Of a stretch of DNA of 64,000 nt, positions 46,173 through 51,059 are shown piece by piece. Source of the stretch: an uncultured Candidatus Saccharibacteria bacterium (GTDB taxonomy: Bacteria; Patescibacteriota; Dojkabacteria; GCA-016699595; JBAXKR01); NCBI GenBank assembly GCA_964430225.1, contig CAYSFE010000001.1:11820-75819 (forward strand), written 5' to 3'. The position numbers were made by a program, and so were the translations under genes. Each line of letters opens with the position of its first letter. Position 1 is the first letter of the stretch. The notes under the pieces were generated by a model. It had not been told where the DNA came from and searched no databases. It saw nothing but the letters and a program-made list of their open reading frames with translations.

Positions 46173-46238
46173 AATGTATACAAAGTACACTAGTTTGTAT
46201 CTTTTGATTAAAGCAATGTATACAAACTTTCTATTTTA
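46173..46238. repeat. ~65-bp structured repeat unit, copy 1 (hairpin + conserved 25-mer overlapping the RhuM stop codon)
   Basis: AATGTATACAAAGTAC...TTTGTAT hairpin, then CAATGTATACAAACTTTCTATTTTA (46214-46238). 23/25 identity to copy 2. Confidence 0.55.
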
Positions 46239-47279
46239 TAGAACTGTTTTGTTATTAGGATCAATTAGTTTTTTAACTTCTTTGTCAAAGTCAGAAATAT
46301 AATTTTTATCCTGTATAGGTTTATATTTCTCATACTCACTTTCAGCAAATGACTTGGCCACTTCTGATGAAACTTTACCAGCATTTTTCAAGATATCTTT
46401 ATTATTAAATCTCAAAAATACATCAAGTTTTGTAGCCCAATCTTTCATAGTCATTGGGGTACCGTTTTCTGCCTGGTCTTCTGCATAATCCAAATACATA
46501 GTAACAATTCGGTTAAGTGCCTTGATCTCTTTTTCATTGAGATAGTTTTTTGCTATTACTACATCTGTCTTGAGTATTTTTCCCTTTGGAGCCTTTTTCC
46601 ATGTTGTTAAGCCCATATATTCTTTTTCATGAGAGACTCGATCTACAATCAGCTCAGCTGCTGTATTTTGATGAATAGCGTAATGCATCTTATTTTGAAC
46701 TGTAGCGAAGAAATCTTTAGTTGTTTGTGAATTAAGGTCATAATCTAAAGCAGTTACATAAATATCCGTTATTTTTTGATAAAAGTTTCTTTCACTTTCA
46801 CGAATATCTCTAATTTCAAGAATTAAATCTTCAAAATATTGCTTACTTAAGAATGAACCGTTTTTTAATCTTTCACTATCAAGTACATATCCACGAGTTG
46901 AGAAATCTTTCAATATTCTATTTGCCCATCGACGAAATTCTATTGCTCTTTCTGAGTTAACTTTAAATCCTATTGCTATGATTGCCTCTAAACTATAATG
47001 CTCAACATCTCTTTCCACTTTGCGTGAACCTTCAGTTTGAACTATTCGAAAATTTCGAATAGTTGAGTTCTCAACTAATTCCTTACTCATGAATATCTCT
47101 TTTATATGGTAGTTAATGGTGTTAATTTCAACACTAAAAAGTTTTGCAATTAATTTTTGTGTCAGCCAAATATTCCCATCCTCAACCCTTACTTCAATAC
47201 TATCTTGGCCAGATTGTAGGGTAAATATTAAAAATTCTGAAGTACTATTTCTTATCATTAAGTTTTTACTATTTGGCAT
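46236..47279 (-). CDS. RhuM-family protein (virulence/defence-island associated)
   Basis: N-terminal 'IEVRVEDGNIWLTQKLIAKLFSVEINTINYHIKEIF', typical of the RhuM/Fic-associated family. 347 aa. Confidence 0.55.
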   Translation of the reverse strand: MPNSKNLMIRNSTSEFLIFTLQSGQDSIEVRVEDGNIWLTQKLIAKLFSVEINTINYHIKEIFMSKELVENSTIRNFRIVQTEGSRKVERDVEHYSLEAIIAIGFKVNSERAIEFRRWANRILKDFSTRGYVLDSERLKNGSFLSKQYFEDLILEIRDIRESERNFYQKITDIYVTALDYDLNSQTTKDFFATVQNKMHYAIHQNTAAELIVDRVSHEKEYMGLTTWKKAPKGKILKTDVVIAKNYLNEKEIKALNRIVTMYLDYAEDQAENGTPMTMKDWATKLDVFLRFNNKDILKNAGKVSSEVAKSFAESEYEKYKPIQDKNYISDFDKEVKKLIDPNNKTVL

Positions 47280-47378: not shown

Positions 47379-47445
47379 GAATGTACTCAAAGTACCCTTG
47401 TTTGAGTACATTCATTCAGTCAATGTACACAAACTTTCCATTTTA
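47379..47445. repeat. ~65-bp structured repeat unit, copy 2 (13-bp inverted repeat GAATGTACTCAAA/TTTGAGTACATTC + conserved 25-mer overlapping the nuclease stop codon)
   Basis: CAATGTACACAAACTTTCCATTTTA at 47421-47445; same architecture as copy 1. Confidence 0.55.
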
Positions 47446-48171
47446 ATATTGTTTTGCCATCTTTTCTTGATACTCACACCATTCACACTCACTTGAATAT
47501 TCTGGTACCTTATCACTATTTAAACAACTTTTAATGTTTAAAAGGGTGGGTTCTATCCAGTTATCATTCCCTACATATGGTATTACTTTGATTTTAAACT
47601 CTAGCTTAGCATCAAATGCCTCTTTATCTTTTATTCCATTGCAATATACAAAGTATCCAGTATTAGATACTTTGAATTCATTTCTTCTTAGCAACCACTG
47701 ATATACCTCCATCTGTCTTTTATATCCCATCTGCCATTCTGAATCTAAGTTTACCTCTGTATCCTTGGCTGTTGATTTATAGTCGACGACATGGAGTTCT
47801 CCAATAGGATTTACCCATACATCATCTATAGCCCCATAAATATATAGGTTGGTTTTAGGATGAAGATACTGTACTCCAGTAAAGTTAGCTCTCCATATAT
47901 CTATATCCTTATGACTATATGGAATAGCATCTATTCCATATTTTTTCATTAAAGGATGCGTTTTTCCCTTTACCCTATGAGCATCAAATTCAAGTTTTAA
48001 TAAATGATCTACTGCAGAGTTAAGAGAGTATGGGGGAGAGGAGGGTCTCTTAATACCTAATTTCTTATCTAAATAGAAACATCTGGGACATTTAACATAT
48101 AGCTCTATACCAGTCCTACTTATCTTATATGAATCTTCACTATCTGTTTTATATACTCCTTTATATGGCAT
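47443..48171 (-). CDS. PD-(D/E)xK nuclease, Cas4/RecB-like with four Cys (CxxC...CxxC)
   Basis: 'GAIDD...ELHVVDYKST' (D...D/E-x-K); N-terminal 'CPRC' and C-terminal 'CEWC'. Confidence 0.5.
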   Translation of the reverse strand: MPYKGVYKTDSEDSYKISRTGIELYVKCPRCFYLDKKLGIKRPSSPPYSLNSAVDHLLKLEFDAHRVKGKTHPLMKKYGIDAIPYSHKDIDIWRANFTGVQYLHPKTNLYIYGAIDDVWVNPIGELHVVDYKSTAKDTEVNLDSEWQMGYKRQMEVYQWLLRRNEFKVSNTGYFVYCNGIKDKEAFDAKLEFKIKVIPYVGNDNWIEPTLLNIKSCLNSDKVPEYSSECEWCEYQEKMAKQY

Positions 48172-48270: not shown

Positions 48271-48299
48271 TTGACAATCGGTTTCTTTCCGGTTAAACT
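48271..48299 (+). promoter_or_regulatory. candidate promoter of the LexA-methyltransferase gene (TTGACA-17 nt-TAAACT) with CGGTT direct repeats in spacer
   Basis: Consensus -35; weak -10; tCGGTTtctttcCGGTTaa inside the spacer could be an operator. Confidence 0.3.
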
Positions 48300-48332: not shown

Positions 48333-49901
48333 ATGAATGGACTAAGCTTAAAACAAAAAAGAGTTTATGATTATATAATTAAATTTATAAATGAAAATGG
48401 AATAGCTCCAACTATCGAAGAAATCCGAAAAGCCTTAAAATTAATGGCAACATCTACAGTTCATGAACATATTAAAACTTTAGTAGATAAGGGATATCTT
48501 AAAAAAGAGACCTCCTATCACAGAGGGTTAATTCCAATAAAAGCAATTAAGAAAGTATTTGAGGTTCCAATAATCGGGAAGATTGCAGCTGGCAAACCCA
48601 TTGAGGTAAATGAGGTTTTTGAAGATACAATTTCAATTGTAAACGAAAATATTTCCAACATAAAAGATTTTTATGCTTTAAAAGTCGAGGGTAACAGTAT
48701 GATTGACGAAGGAATTTTTGATGGAGACATTGTGATAGTCAAGAAACAATCAGTAGCCGAAAATGGCCAGACTGTAGTTGCTATTGTTGATGATAATTGT
48801 GCAACTCTTAAAAAGATATATAAAGAGAAATCTAGATTTAGGCTTGAGCCAAGAAATCAATCTATGCTTCCCTTTTTTAGAAAAGAGGTTGAAGTAAGAG
48901 GTGTTGTTATTCAAATCATTAGTAATACCTTTAGTAATGCATTAAATAAACAAGAAAAACAACAAAATTTTAGAACAATTGATTTATTTGCAGGTATTGG
49001 TGGCATACGTATTGGATTTGAAAAAGCAGGATTTAATACAGTTTTCGCAAATGATTTTGAGCCAAATTGTAAAATTACTTATGATCTTAACTTCAAGAAG
49101 ACAAAACTAGTGGTTGAAGATATAAAAAAAATTGGTATTAAAGATTTACCAAACTTTGATTTTGTTTTAGCTGGCTTTCCATGTCAGGCATTTTCAATCG
49201 CTGGTTACAGACAGGGTTTTAATGATGAGAAGGGAAGAGGAAACTTATTCTTTGATATTGTTAAAATTTTAGAAGCACGTAAACCCGAAGGATTTTTACT
49301 AGAGAATGTTAAGAATCTAAAAAGTCATGATAATGGTAAAACTTTTAAGATTATAGAAAAATCGTTAACAGACCTAGGCTATTATGTCAAAACAAAGGTA
49401 CTAAACTCAATGGAATATGGTAATATCCCACAGAATCGCGAACGAATATATATTGTAGGATTCAAAAATAAGAATTATGCAGAAAAATTTACATTCCCAT
49501 TGCCACAAAAGCTTTCAACAAAAGTAGAAGACTTATTAGAAAAGAATGTTCTACAAAAGTATTATTACAATAACAAGCCACTTTACGAGAAGCTTAAAAA
49601 TCATGTAAAAGTAGGAAAGGTTTATCAGTGGAGAAGACAATATGTAAGGGAAAACAAGAAAGGTGTTTGTCCAACATTGACTGCAAACATGGGAACAGGA
49701 GGGCATAATGTTCCAATTATAAAAGATAGTAAGGGAATTAGAAAATTAACTCCAATCGAGTGCGCAAGAATTCAAGGATTTCCGCAAGATTTTGTACTAC
49801 CAAATCTTGCAGACTCCATACTTTATAAACAAATTGGAAATTCAGTCAGTGTACCAGTCGTAGAGTCAGTAGCAAAACAAATGATGAAAGCATTAGAATA
49901 A
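48333..49901 (+). CDS. fusion protein: LexA-like repressor (HTH + S24 autopeptidase) fused to DNA (cytosine-5) methyltransferase
   Basis: Residues 1-~200 are collinear with LexA ('IAPTIEEIRKAL...HIKTLVDKGYL', 'IGKIAAGKPIE' Ala-Gly site, 'VEGNSMID' Ser, 'IVIVKK' Lys). C-terminal C5-MTase motifs: I 'DLFAGIGGIRIGF', IV 'GFPCQAFSIAG', VI 'ENVKNL', 'RIQGFPQDF', 'GNSVSVPV'. Confidence 0.8.
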   Translation: MNGLSLKQKRVYDYIIKFINENGIAPTIEEIRKALKLMATSTVHEHIKTLVDKGYLKKETSYHRGLIPIKAIKKVFEVPIIGKIAAGKPIEVNEVFEDTISIVNENISNIKDFYALKVEGNSMIDEGIFDGDIVIVKKQSVAENGQTVVAIVDDNCATLKKIYKEKSRFRLEPRNQSMLPFFRKEVEVRGVVIQIISNTFSNALNKQEKQQNFRTIDLFAGIGGIRIGFEKAGFNTVFANDFEPNCKITYDLNFKKTKLVVEDIKKIGIKDLPNFDFVLAGFPCQAFSIAGYRQGFNDEKGRGNLFFDIVKILEARKPEGFLLENVKNLKSHDNGKTFKIIEKSLTDLGYYVKTKVLNSMEYGNIPQNRERIYIVGFKNKNYAEKFTFPLPQKLSTKVEDLLEKNVLQKYYYNNKPLYEKLKNHVKVGKVYQWRRQYVRENKKGVCPTLTANMGTGGHNVPIIKDSKGIRKLTPIECARIQGFPQDFVLPNLADSILYKQIGNSVSVPVVESVAKQMMKALE

Positions 49902-49902
49902 A

Positions 49903-50958
49903 TTAAATTTTTTCGGAAATTTCTTTAAATGCCACTTCTGGTTTAGTTAAAAGACCTTTTGATATTAGGGTAGTAATATTATTTTTAGCAATCCAAATGT
50001 TATTTCTATCTAATTTAGGATTTCTTCCTATTGCATTTAAATCAAAACTATAATAATTATCTTTTTCAAGTTTGTAATTCCCAACTATTTTATTTGTTAC
50101 AAACGAATCAGTTACACAATAAATATACCTTCTTATACTTTTTTTGTTCTTTTTTTCAAAAAGTTTAATTTCTCCAGAATAATAAAACCTACCCATAAAT
50201 TCAGGAGAAGGAACCTTTTTATTCATTTCATATTGCTCAAGGTATTCTTTTGAAATTCCAATAATTTCAGGAATTTTGCCTTTTTTTATAGAAGATATTG
50301 TCGCTTTTCCAGCAATGTTAAAAACTTTTGTTTCATACATTAAAGAGTCCTTTCTATAAATTTTCCCATATTTACTTAACTCACTACCCGAAATTACATA
50401 ATCAACTACGACTTGAATATTTTGCATTTCGGTAAATCTTTCAAATATTTCCGTTTTAATTTCTCCTTTAAGGTATACCCCAAGTAAATCCTTCTGTTTA
50501 CTGTCCCCTATGTTTGTATTTGCGATATGAGCACCAATAATAAAAATGTTTTCCAAATTGGAATAACTGGGGATACTTTTTATTGTTTCAAACTGTTCTA
50601 GAGTAAGTCCACACCATCTATCAGCAACTGAGACGTTTTTAATTTCAATAAAACAATTCGGATTTCTTTTCTTATTATTATGGAAAATATATGGAATGTC
50701 AGGCTCATTCAAAATCTCACTATTACTTTTAATATCAAGATCAAGTTCGAATGATTTATTGGGATTGAAATTTGCGAGTATTTTAGAAACTCCAATTTCA
50801 ACAAGCTTACCAAATAAAAAACTATCAATAACACCCCCTAATCCCCTAGAGGAACCTGAGGTTCTTGAAGACTTAGATTTCTTAGGATCAAGATGATATT
50901 TAACAGCGAAGCCGAAAGCAACTTCAAAATCTTTTTTTGTTAAATTATAACTTAACAT
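49903..50958 (-). CDS. putative type II restriction endonuclease (PD-x16-ExK)
   Basis: 'NEPDIPYIFHNNKKRNPNCFIEIKNVS' contains PD...E-I-K. Convergent with the methyltransferase and abutting it (1-nt gap). Confidence 0.45.
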   Translation of the reverse strand: MLSYNLTKKDFEVAFGFAVKYHLDPKKSKSSRTSGSSRGLGGVIDSFLFGKLVEIGVSKILANFNPNKSFELDLDIKSNSEILNEPDIPYIFHNNKKRNPNCFIEIKNVSVADRWCGLTLEQFETIKSIPSYSNLENIFIIGAHIANTNIGDSKQKDLLGVYLKGEIKTEIFERFTEMQNIQVVVDYVISGSELSKYGKIYRKDSLMYETKVFNIAGKATISSIKKGKIPEIIGISKEYLEQYEMNKKVPSPEFMGRFYYSGEIKLFEKKNKKSIRRYIYCVTDSFVTNKIVGNYKLEKDNYYSFDLNAIGRNPKLDRNNIWIAKNNITTLISKGLLTKPEVAFKEISEKI

Positions 50959-50969
50959 TTTTTATTTCT

Positions 50970-51059
50970 TGGCGGAGAGAGAGGGATTCGAACCCCCGGT
51001 TGACTTGCGCCAACAACAGTTTTCAAGACTGTCGCCTTAAACCACTCGGCCATCTCTCC
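50970..51059 (-). tRNA. tRNA-Ser (anticodon UGA), CCA encoded
   Basis: The reverse complement reads GGAGAGATGGCCGAGTGGTTTAAGGCG-ACAGT-CTTGAAA-ACTGT-[long variable arm TGTTGGCGCAAGTCAACC]-GGGGGTTCGAATCCCTC-TCTCTCC-G-CCA. Confidence 0.8.

Follow-up and report, generated by a model that had tools for sequence, protein, structure and literature searches.

A LexA repressor fused to a C5 cytosine methyltransferase in Patescibacteria: a predicted self-cleaving M gene with a putative SOS-type operator

Every restriction-modification (R-M) system pairs a toxic nuclease with a protective methylase, and the two have to be kept in balance. The known controls of this balance are C proteins, helix-turn-helix (HTH) extensions of the methylase, promoter methylation and antisense RNA, and to our knowledge none of them senses DNA damage. 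Methylases of the SsoII type, which carry such an HTH extension, act by feedback at the level of the methylase, and we know of no damage input to them. Patescibacteria are episymbionts with reduced genomes; they live in part by scavenging DNA from outside and carry many R-M systems. Here, we analysed a 64-kb stretch of DNA (64,000 nt, hereafter the window) from an uncultured Candidatus Saccharibacteria bacterium of this group, in which a single open reading frame (ORF) of 522 aa carries a LexA repressor and a C5 cytosine methyltransferase. We consider it probable that this gene encodes an SOS-wired, self-repressing methylase, which is induced once activated RecA (RecA*) triggers its self-cleavage, in a Type II R-M system whose target is probably GCNGC. 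The putative operator of the gene consists of direct repeats. Such an arrangement is known from the LexA box of Alphaproteobacteria (GTTC-N7-GTTC, 11-bp period), and duplications of lexA have been accompanied by divergence of the motif (PMC8565304).

LexA and methyltransferase in one reading frame

Pfam models placed LexA_DNA_bind, Peptidase_S24 and DNA_methylase, in this order, in the single 522-aa ORF (Table 1), as the first-pass annotation, made from the letters of the DNA, had claimed for a complete LexA fused in frame to a canonical C5 methyltransferase. The NCBIfam lexA equivalog model (TIGR00498) matched the first 198 residues over model positions 1-201 of 203, with 168.8 bits against a cut-off of 110.95, and the dcm model (TIGR00675) matched the remainder of the protein with 335.8 bits. 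The winged HTH could be aligned with residues 1-65 of E. coli LexA, and its recognition helix is S41-T-V-H-E-H46. In the methylase half, the PF00145 match spans model positions 1-323 of 324; all ten C5 motifs were found, PCQ, ENV and FxGxG included, with motifs VIII and IX flanking a target recognition domain. The nearest solved structures are M.HhaI for residues 209-517 (203 bits) and the LexA proteins of T. maritima and E. coli for residues 1-196. A standalone LexA has about 200 aa, whereas this protein runs on into the methyltransferase; its N-terminus is predicted to be a complete, catalytically competent LexA paralogue. An AlphaFold model of moderate confidence (pLDDT 74.5, pTM 0.59) comprised three folded modules and a disordered linker, in which residues 199-211 had a pLDDT below 50. 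The model came without pairwise error and is usable for the disordered linker, not for contacts between the domains; it suggests that a flexible tether would join the S24 and methylase domains.

We then compared the catalytic residues with those of E. coli LexA. A86-G87 in 'IAAGKP' aligned with the scissile A84-G85, and S122 in 'GNSM' aligned with Ser119, in agreement with the cleavage site and nucleophile named at first. The general base had been placed in 'IVIVKK', which corresponds to 'LLAVHK' of E. coli; the counterpart of Lys156 is instead K160 in 'ATLKKI'. This misassignment is harmless because the conserved Lys is present at the right position. In an alignment of 70 fusions, S122, K160, the G-x-S-M motif, PCQ and ENV were found in all 70, and A86 and G87 in 69 each, indicating that the S24 Ser/Lys dyad is kept on careful alignment. 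The cleavage site, Ser and Lys were also invariant in 51 LexA-headed representatives of other methylase classes. Linker residues 197-212 were the least conserved stretch of the 70 fusions (column conservation 0.38) and varied in length, while conservation of the target-recognition region between motifs VIII and IX (0.86) was at the level of the catalytic motifs. Both halves thus look catalytically intact and under purifying selection.

The fusion gene is genuine and widespread. The identical protein was found on two independent Logan assemblies (SRR16481186 and SRR16481187) and on a 178-kb NCBI contig, and this support from three assemblies excluded the frameshift or chimeric join against which the first-pass annotation had cautioned. 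All 120 best database clusters, a lower bound on their number, hold the three domains in a single ORF of about 525 aa with 71-76% identity; those with a named source are Patescibacteria (Parcubacteria, Paceibacteria and the Moran-, Yanofsky- and Taylorbacteria groups). A scan with one genome per species found relatives in at least 587 genomes. Its best 71 loci were full-length fusions, almost all from Patescibacteria, and 11 further relatives were standalone methylases (64-71% identity) that do not carry the LexA half. Homologous fusions are therefore common, and the gene, far from standing alone, belongs to a Patescibacteria family of very large size. A phage origin was considered and rejected: among the best 80 of 166 IMG/VR matches none carried the LexA half, and these viral relatives were standalone methylases.

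Such fusion sequences have been public since 2012 (EKE06710.1), labelled either 'transcriptional repressor LexA' or 'DNA (cytosine-5)-methyltransferase 1' / 'cytosine methyltransferase'. Each label leaves one half of the protein out of sight and may skew censuses of SOS regulons and of R-M systems. The first-pass annotation knew of no description of such an attachment, in line with the searchable full-text literature, in which we found only artificial LexA fusions of two-hybrid work and no natural LexA-methyltransferase fusion; an earlier mention is possible, for example in the study of the Patescibacteria SOS network by Sanchez-Osuna, Barbe & Erill (2017). The fusion goes unmentioned in reviews on how R-M systems are regulated and in a 2026 preprint about the methyltransferases of the Candidate Phyla Radiation, to which Patescibacteria belong.

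The LexA half was also searched alone against 1.8 billion representative proteins. Most of its closest relatives carry LexA N-terminally and measure 295-890 aa, and LexA_DNA_bind and Peptidase_S24 were present in all 51 that we examined. Their C-terminal parts were of the N6_N4_Mtase (30), Eco57I-type (7), D12/Dam (5), N6_Mtase (5), MmeI-type (4) and C5 (3) classes, and the LexA-headed methylases of other classes with a named source are likewise from Patescibacteria. The LexA module is therefore not confined to C5 enzymes. Promoter, operator repeats and LexA module were alike at the N6_N4, Eco57I-type, Dam-type and other methylases, and a convergent partner gene was present in all four inspected loci of these other classes (Table 1). 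Across methylase classes the LexA halves share 53-58% identity, versus 44-48% with standalone LexA proteins behind the same operator (see below), suggesting that the fused LexA forms a separate paralogous lineage. We tentatively propose, at somewhat less than even chances, that Patescibacteria have a portable SOS-sensor cassette, in which a cleavable LexA module is combined with a promoter, a direct-repeat LexA box and a DnaA-box-like element, and that this cassette has been grafted onto every methyltransferase class in Type II and Type IIS systems. The fusion family offers a phylum-wide natural example of the modular shuffling of regulatory domains.

The operator and its occurrence at SOS genes

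A promoter scan identified TTGACA-17-TAAACT (10 of 12 matches) before the fusion gene, with a pair of repeats in the spacer whose cores, CGGTT, lie at 48279-48283 and 48290-48294. A putative operator for the fused HTH, expected near this place by the first-pass annotation, was thereby identified in the fusion's own promoter, and it is the single match in the window. The upstream architecture shared by the fusions is TGTGGATAAC, a -35 hexamer, two TTTCGGT repeats with an 11-bp period filling the spacer, and TATAAT; the family consensus of the operator is TTTCGGT-N4-TTTCGGT, of which the window holds a degenerate copy. The pattern TTCGG-N6-TTCGG was found 50 times in 961 kb of homologous loci, each time directly upstream of a fusion gene and never at the standalone methylase relatives. 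In divergent subgroups its place is taken by TTTTCTA or TTTCGA repeats, and the recognition helix varies with the repeats: ST[IV]HEH goes with TTCGG, and STAH[HY][YH] or STVHFH with TTTTCTA or TTTCGA. A Dam-type fusion, for example, combines TTTTCTA repeats with the helix STVHFH.

From the 961 kb of fusion loci, the operator seemed private to the fusions. This was rejected by a scan of metagenome contigs for TTCGG-N6-TTCGGTTATAAT, which found at least 126 occurrences and placed the box also before recA, standalone lexA and other genes. Among the matches listed, 56 have a LexA-type ORF about 57 nt downstream, mostly fusions of 522-528 aa; six, from five distinct loci, precede a standalone LexA of 197-208 aa, and one precedes recA. 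The standalone LexA proteins carry the ST[IV]HEH helix and are 44-48% identical to the LexA half of the window, and one of them adjoins uvrB. The identities of RecA (TIGR02012, 524 bits), LexA (TIGR00498, 180 bits) and UvrB were above the NCBIfam cut-offs. Many other listed matches were unrelated tandem 11-mers or random matches in GC-rich DNA and were set aside. Given that it stands before recA and standalone lexA as well in related DNA, the repeat is predicted to serve these organisms as the LexA box for an SOS-type regulon, which also makes a damage-sensor role of the fusion more plausible.

Several side observations came from these scans. At the scissile position, the standalone LexA proteins of the five loci mostly have Cys-Gly ('IACGEP'), as in UmuD, and the fusions have Ala-Gly. 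Three of the listed matches, on independent contigs, directly precede a conserved protein of 84-89 aa with the pattern MLVFHEQPH..RVF.DFS.GQNN.KRVIP.AFFWAG.RYDIQSVNLVYQRRRG; it has no NCBIfam match and is a candidate SOS gene. One further match precedes a 415-aa C5 methyltransferase whose N-terminal extension of about 80 aa is not LexA; LexA would regulate this unfused methylase in trans. The tandem arrays of the 11-mer TTCGGTTATAA, seen in five human-gut metagenome contigs and others, fit the search pattern by construction and are unrelated to LexA genes.

A perfect consensus DnaA box was observed 19-24 nt before the LexA box of lexA-type promoters, both at fusion loci and at several metagenome matches. 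At fusions the element reads TGTGGATAA(C), in 35 of the 71 genome loci and, with one degenerate position allowed, in 44 of 55 metagenome matches; at standalone lexA promoters it reads TTATCCACA(G), in opposite orientation. Where the same LexA box stands before recA, the small protein or the unfused methylase, the element was not seen, suggesting a replication-initiator input specific to lexA-type genes. The TGTGGATAA element is absent from the fusion promoter of the window. The standalone methylase relatives differ in their promoters as well: five carry GCTGCTTTTT(A/T)T in the promoter region, which contains a GCNGC site and hints at regulation by promoter methylation, and two others carry the palindrome GTGAACATATGTTCAC or a close variant, resembling the Gram-positive LexA box.

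Restriction-modification context and proposed mechanism

The gene had been taken for the methyltransferase of an R-M system, and the adjoining convergent gene bears this out. Its 351-aa product is a probable Type II restriction endonuclease from a small unannotated family with invariant D87, E105 and K107; its confident model (pLDDT 89.8) had PD-(D/E)XK nucleases and restriction enzymes as the top structural matches. A convergent minus-strand ORF lies within 100 nt of the fusion stop codon in 67 of 71 loci, in 65 of them at -23 to +10 nt. The partners belong to at least nine unrelated, interchangeable families, of which RE_Bsp6I (28 loci), PDDEXK_5 (9) and RE_NgoFVII_C (7) could be named, while several have no Pfam match. 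At least five of the latter (about 280, 280, 320, 350 and 350-417 aa) are candidate new restriction endonucleases, with a specificity that is probably of GCNGC type. We therefore assign the ORF as the predicted M (methyltransferase) gene of a Type II R-M system and the convergent ORF as its R (restriction) gene.

Bsp6I recognizes GCNGC, and NgoFVII recognizes GCSGC. These partner types indicate a GCNGC-type target, and in 766 kb of fusion loci GCNGC was the most depleted of 13 sites (observed/expected 0.59). From both lines, the target is probably GCNGC-type. An HhaI-like specificity for GCGC, prompted by the best PDB match, was rejected: the partner families do not support it, and GCGC is not depleted (0.99). 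A C-protein-like HTH_3 gene stands directly before R in at least 15 of 67 related loci. No LexA box was found at any R or C promoter of the fusion loci examined, and LexA control of the R gene was rejected on this ground. The earlier suggestion that self-cleavage would derepress the R-M locus consequently holds, as a prediction, for the promoter of the M gene and fails for the R gene, which is convergent and has its own upstream region.

The mechanism that we propose builds on the observed domain architecture and its conservation, the R-M context, the location of the operator, the co-variation of helix and repeats, and the presence of the operator at SOS genes. A dimer held together by the S24 domains would bind both 11-bp-spaced repeats between -35 and -10 and repress its own synthesis. 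The M gene would be part of the SOS circuit because its repeats are the operator type found in related organisms at recA and standalone lexA; any canonical LexA resident in the cell would probably take part in its repression. Upon DNA damage, self-restriction or DNA uptake, RecA-single-stranded DNA filaments would form, the LexA module would cut itself at A86-G87, and repression would be lifted. Cleavage is predicted to free only the 86-residue HTH, so that the methylase would stay joined to the S24 domain. Synthesis of the methylase would rise, and stronger transcription of M may interfere with that of R because the two genes abut tail to tail with no room for a terminator. On balance, protection would increase and restriction decrease for as long as repair, recombination or DNA uptake yields unmethylated DNA, which would make the system a Type II equivalent of SOS-linked restriction alleviation. 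In a newly entered cell, where the repressor is not yet present, M would be expressed before R.

Several points weigh against this proposal. The operator of the window is degenerate (ATCGG / TCCGG, with TAAACT as -10 hexamer), and a single match of this kind does not by itself exceed chance, as 40 of 100 shuffles of the 64 kb gave at least one. The link to recA is a single locus, and that to standalone lexA is six matches from five distinct loci; the window itself contains no RecA and no second LexA. The co-variation of helix and operator tracks phylogeny and represents few independent events. DNA binding, self-cleavage and methylation are predicted from sequence, and we infer the dependence on RecA, the transcriptional interference and the direction of the physiological effect. 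Moreover, degradation of the S24-methylase cleavage product would reverse the outcome.

The alternative that survives best, although we regard it as unlikely, is that the fusion is the principal or only SOS repressor of the organism, with the methylase as a passenger or as an epigenetic effector of the SOS response. Its N-terminal half scores above the NCBIfam cut-off for a lexA equivalog. Class A fusions share their recognition helix and operator with the standalone LexA that adjoins uvrB, and the box also stands before recA; the fusion protein would thus be expected to be capable of binding SOS boxes. No second LexA was found in the flanks of the fetched loci either, which at 6-10 kb are uninformative for whole genomes. 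However, the fusions occupy non-syntenic sites with interchangeable endonucleases, often by tRNA and defence genes, as is typical of mobile R-M cassettes. Their LexA halves are closer to each other than to the Cys-Gly standalone proteins and form a lineage apart, and private operators (TTTTCTA, TTTCGA) have evolved in subgroups.

Rather less probable still is a LexA module which serves merely as a dimerising autorepressor, like the HTH of SsoII-type enzymes, keeping the methylase level steady and M ahead of R with no part for cleavage or damage sensing. Autoregulation through an N-terminal extension is established for SsoII, Ecl18kI, EcoRII and ScrFI (references in PMC3874152). The operator of the fusion overlaps its own promoter, as such a role would have it, and self-cleavage is read from the conserved residues. 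Under this alternative, however, the invariance of Ala-Gly, Ser and Lys (in 69 to 70 of the 70 C5 fusions and in 51 of 51 representatives of other classes) would not be expected, nor would an operator common to recA and lexA promoters.

We give little credence to a third alternative, in which cleavage inactivates or destabilises the methylase, so that RecA activated by damage or phage lowers methylation and the endonuclease kills the cell, as in abortive infection or addiction. In E. coli, both fragments of cleaved LexA are degraded by ClpXP and Lon, and the new C-terminus of the fusion (...IAA) would resemble that of the E. coli fragment (...VAA). R-M systems can also be addiction modules and induce the SOS response if unbalanced (PMC3874152). 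Derepression of the promoter, on the other hand, would simultaneously raise the synthesis of new methylase; a flexible, variable linker separates the methylase from the S24 domain, and we saw no sign that the methylase depends on the HTH. Finally, an assembly or sequencing artefact, in which lexA and a methylase gene that are in fact separate were joined by a frameshift or as a chimera, was ruled out, as the three independent assemblies, the single ORF in at least 120 clusters and 71 species genomes, and a linker that varies in sequence yet stays in frame all concur.

If the proposed SOS-wired methylase is correct, a self-cleaving LexA inside the methylase would tie restriction to the SOS response in cis, and would explain how Type II systems could spare the host during repair, recombination and DNA uptake. 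Should the more tentative cassette proposal also hold, mobile restriction systems would gain a built-in input for DNA damage and single-stranded DNA, which would raise the methylase and, through convergent transcription, lower restriction. For Type II systems, it would be the first mechanism of restriction alleviation. Such mobile elements would also feed back on the SOS regulon of the host, because the fused LexA shares the specificity of the host SOS box. The analysis further offers a candidate LexA operator for Patescibacteria and several unannotated candidate endonuclease families, and cleavable repressor-enzyme fusions could serve as tools.

The surroundings of the cassette in the window are summarised with its features in Table 1. 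The tRNA-Ser(tga) ends 11 nt before the start codon of the endonuclease gene, tRNA-like sequence occurs at this place in several related loci, and the promoter scan gave a promoter-like site at 51103-51074. The tRNA is a possible source of endonuclease transcription and a possible island boundary. On the other side, a RhuM-family gene and a gene for a Cas4-like nuclease suggest a defence island, and the R-M cassette may be part of such an island inserted at the tRNA gene.

Table 1. Features of the fusion locus in the window, and partner genes at inspected loci of other LexA-headed methylases
Feature	Position	Strand	Basis or remark
LexA-C5 methyltransferase fusion gene (predicted M gene of R-M system)	48333..49901	+	ATG to TAA, 522 aa
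LexA winged helix-turn-helix, residues 1-61	48333..48515	+	Pfam PF01726 LexA_DNA_bind, E 8e-14
Peptidase_S24 domain, residues 79-193	48567..48911	+	Pfam PF00717, E 1e-25
Codons for predicted scissile Ala86-Gly87	48588..48593	+	alignment to E. coli A84-G85
Ser122 codon; Lys160 codon	48696-48698; 48810-48812	+	alignment to E. coli S119, K156
Variable inter-domain linker, residues 197-212	48921..48968	+	70-fusion alignment, AlphaFold model
C5 cytosine methyltransferase domain, residues 213-518	48969..49886	+	Pfam PF00145 DNA_methylase, E 7e-93
PCQ (residues 283-285); ENV (residues 324-326)	49179-49187; 49302-49310	+	
-35 hexamer TTGACA of fusion promoter	48271..48276	+	promoter scan; TTGAnn at same place in 49 class A homologous loci
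Putative LexA operator, AATCGGTT / TTCCGGTT, 11-bp-period direct repeats	48277..48294	+	fills -35/-10 spacer
-10 hexamer TAAACT	48294..48299	+	promoter scan; TATAAT in homologues
Convergent partner gene, 351 aa, probable Type II restriction endonuclease, PD-(D/E)XK fold	49903..50958	-	1 nt from M stop codon
tRNA-Ser(tga), directly upstream of endonuclease gene	50970..51059	-	ARAGORN
RhuM-family gene (PADLOC candidate system PDC-S05); Cas4-like PD-(D/E)XK nuclease	46236-47279; 47443-48171	-	
EcoRII-C endonuclease			partner, inspected locus of other methylase class
Type IIS set: second methylase and RE_Alw26IDE			partner, inspected locus of other methylase class
Unannotated 302-aa protein			partner, inspected locus of other methylase class
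179-aa protein and C protein			partner, inspected locus of other methylase class

Comparison with described systems

In its N-terminal half, the fusion resembles LexA (TIGR00498; structures 1jhh and 3k2z) in the winged HTH, the Ala-Gly hinge, the S24 Ser/Lys dyad and a full-length match. It is also like LexA in having an operator in its own promoter, with the same operator before recA and lexA in related DNA, and the direct-repeat boxes with their 11-bp period recall those of Alphaproteobacteria (PMC8565304). It differs in that it runs into a methyltransferase of 310 residues and sits in a mobile R-M cassette, and in that its lineage is separate from the operator-sharing standalone LexA proteins (44-48% identity, Cys-Gly).

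With the SsoII-type enzymes (M.SsoII, M.Ecl18kI, M.EcoRII and M.ScrFIA), it shares a C5 methylase with an N-terminal DNA-binding extension aimed at the gene's own promoter (references in PMC3874152). Their extension is a short HTH that lacks a protease, whereas the fusion has LexA_DNA_bind and Peptidase_S24, with an autopeptidase that appears intact. Moreover, their genes are usually divergent around one shared intergenic operator, whereas M and R of the fusion system are convergent and 1 nt apart, and the operator, predicted to be an SOS box, stands before M with none at the R side. Because the extension differs and M and R are convergent, the fusion is not a member of the SsoII type; it would combine the autoregulation logic of that type with LexA.

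C-protein systems offer a partial likeness, since related loci can have an HTH_3 gene before R, an arrangement in which R is delayed and M regulated separately. In contrast, the window holds no C gene and a tRNA-Ser precedes R, and the M gene of a classical C-protein system is not under a fused, cleavable repressor. Type I restriction alleviation, in which ClpXP degrades HsdR, is alike in the proposed relief of restriction when damage yields unmodified host DNA (PMC4231737). It acts, however, by proteolysis of the restriction subunit, whereas in our proposal a Type II methylase is induced at the level of transcription once its own repressor domain cuts itself. Finally, M.HhaI and methylases of the Bsp6I/Fnu4HI type share all ten motifs with the fusion, whose partner types suggest GCNGC or GCSGC as the target. 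The fusion differs from these enzymes in its N-terminal 212 residues, and in its loci GCNGC, not GCGC, is the depleted site.

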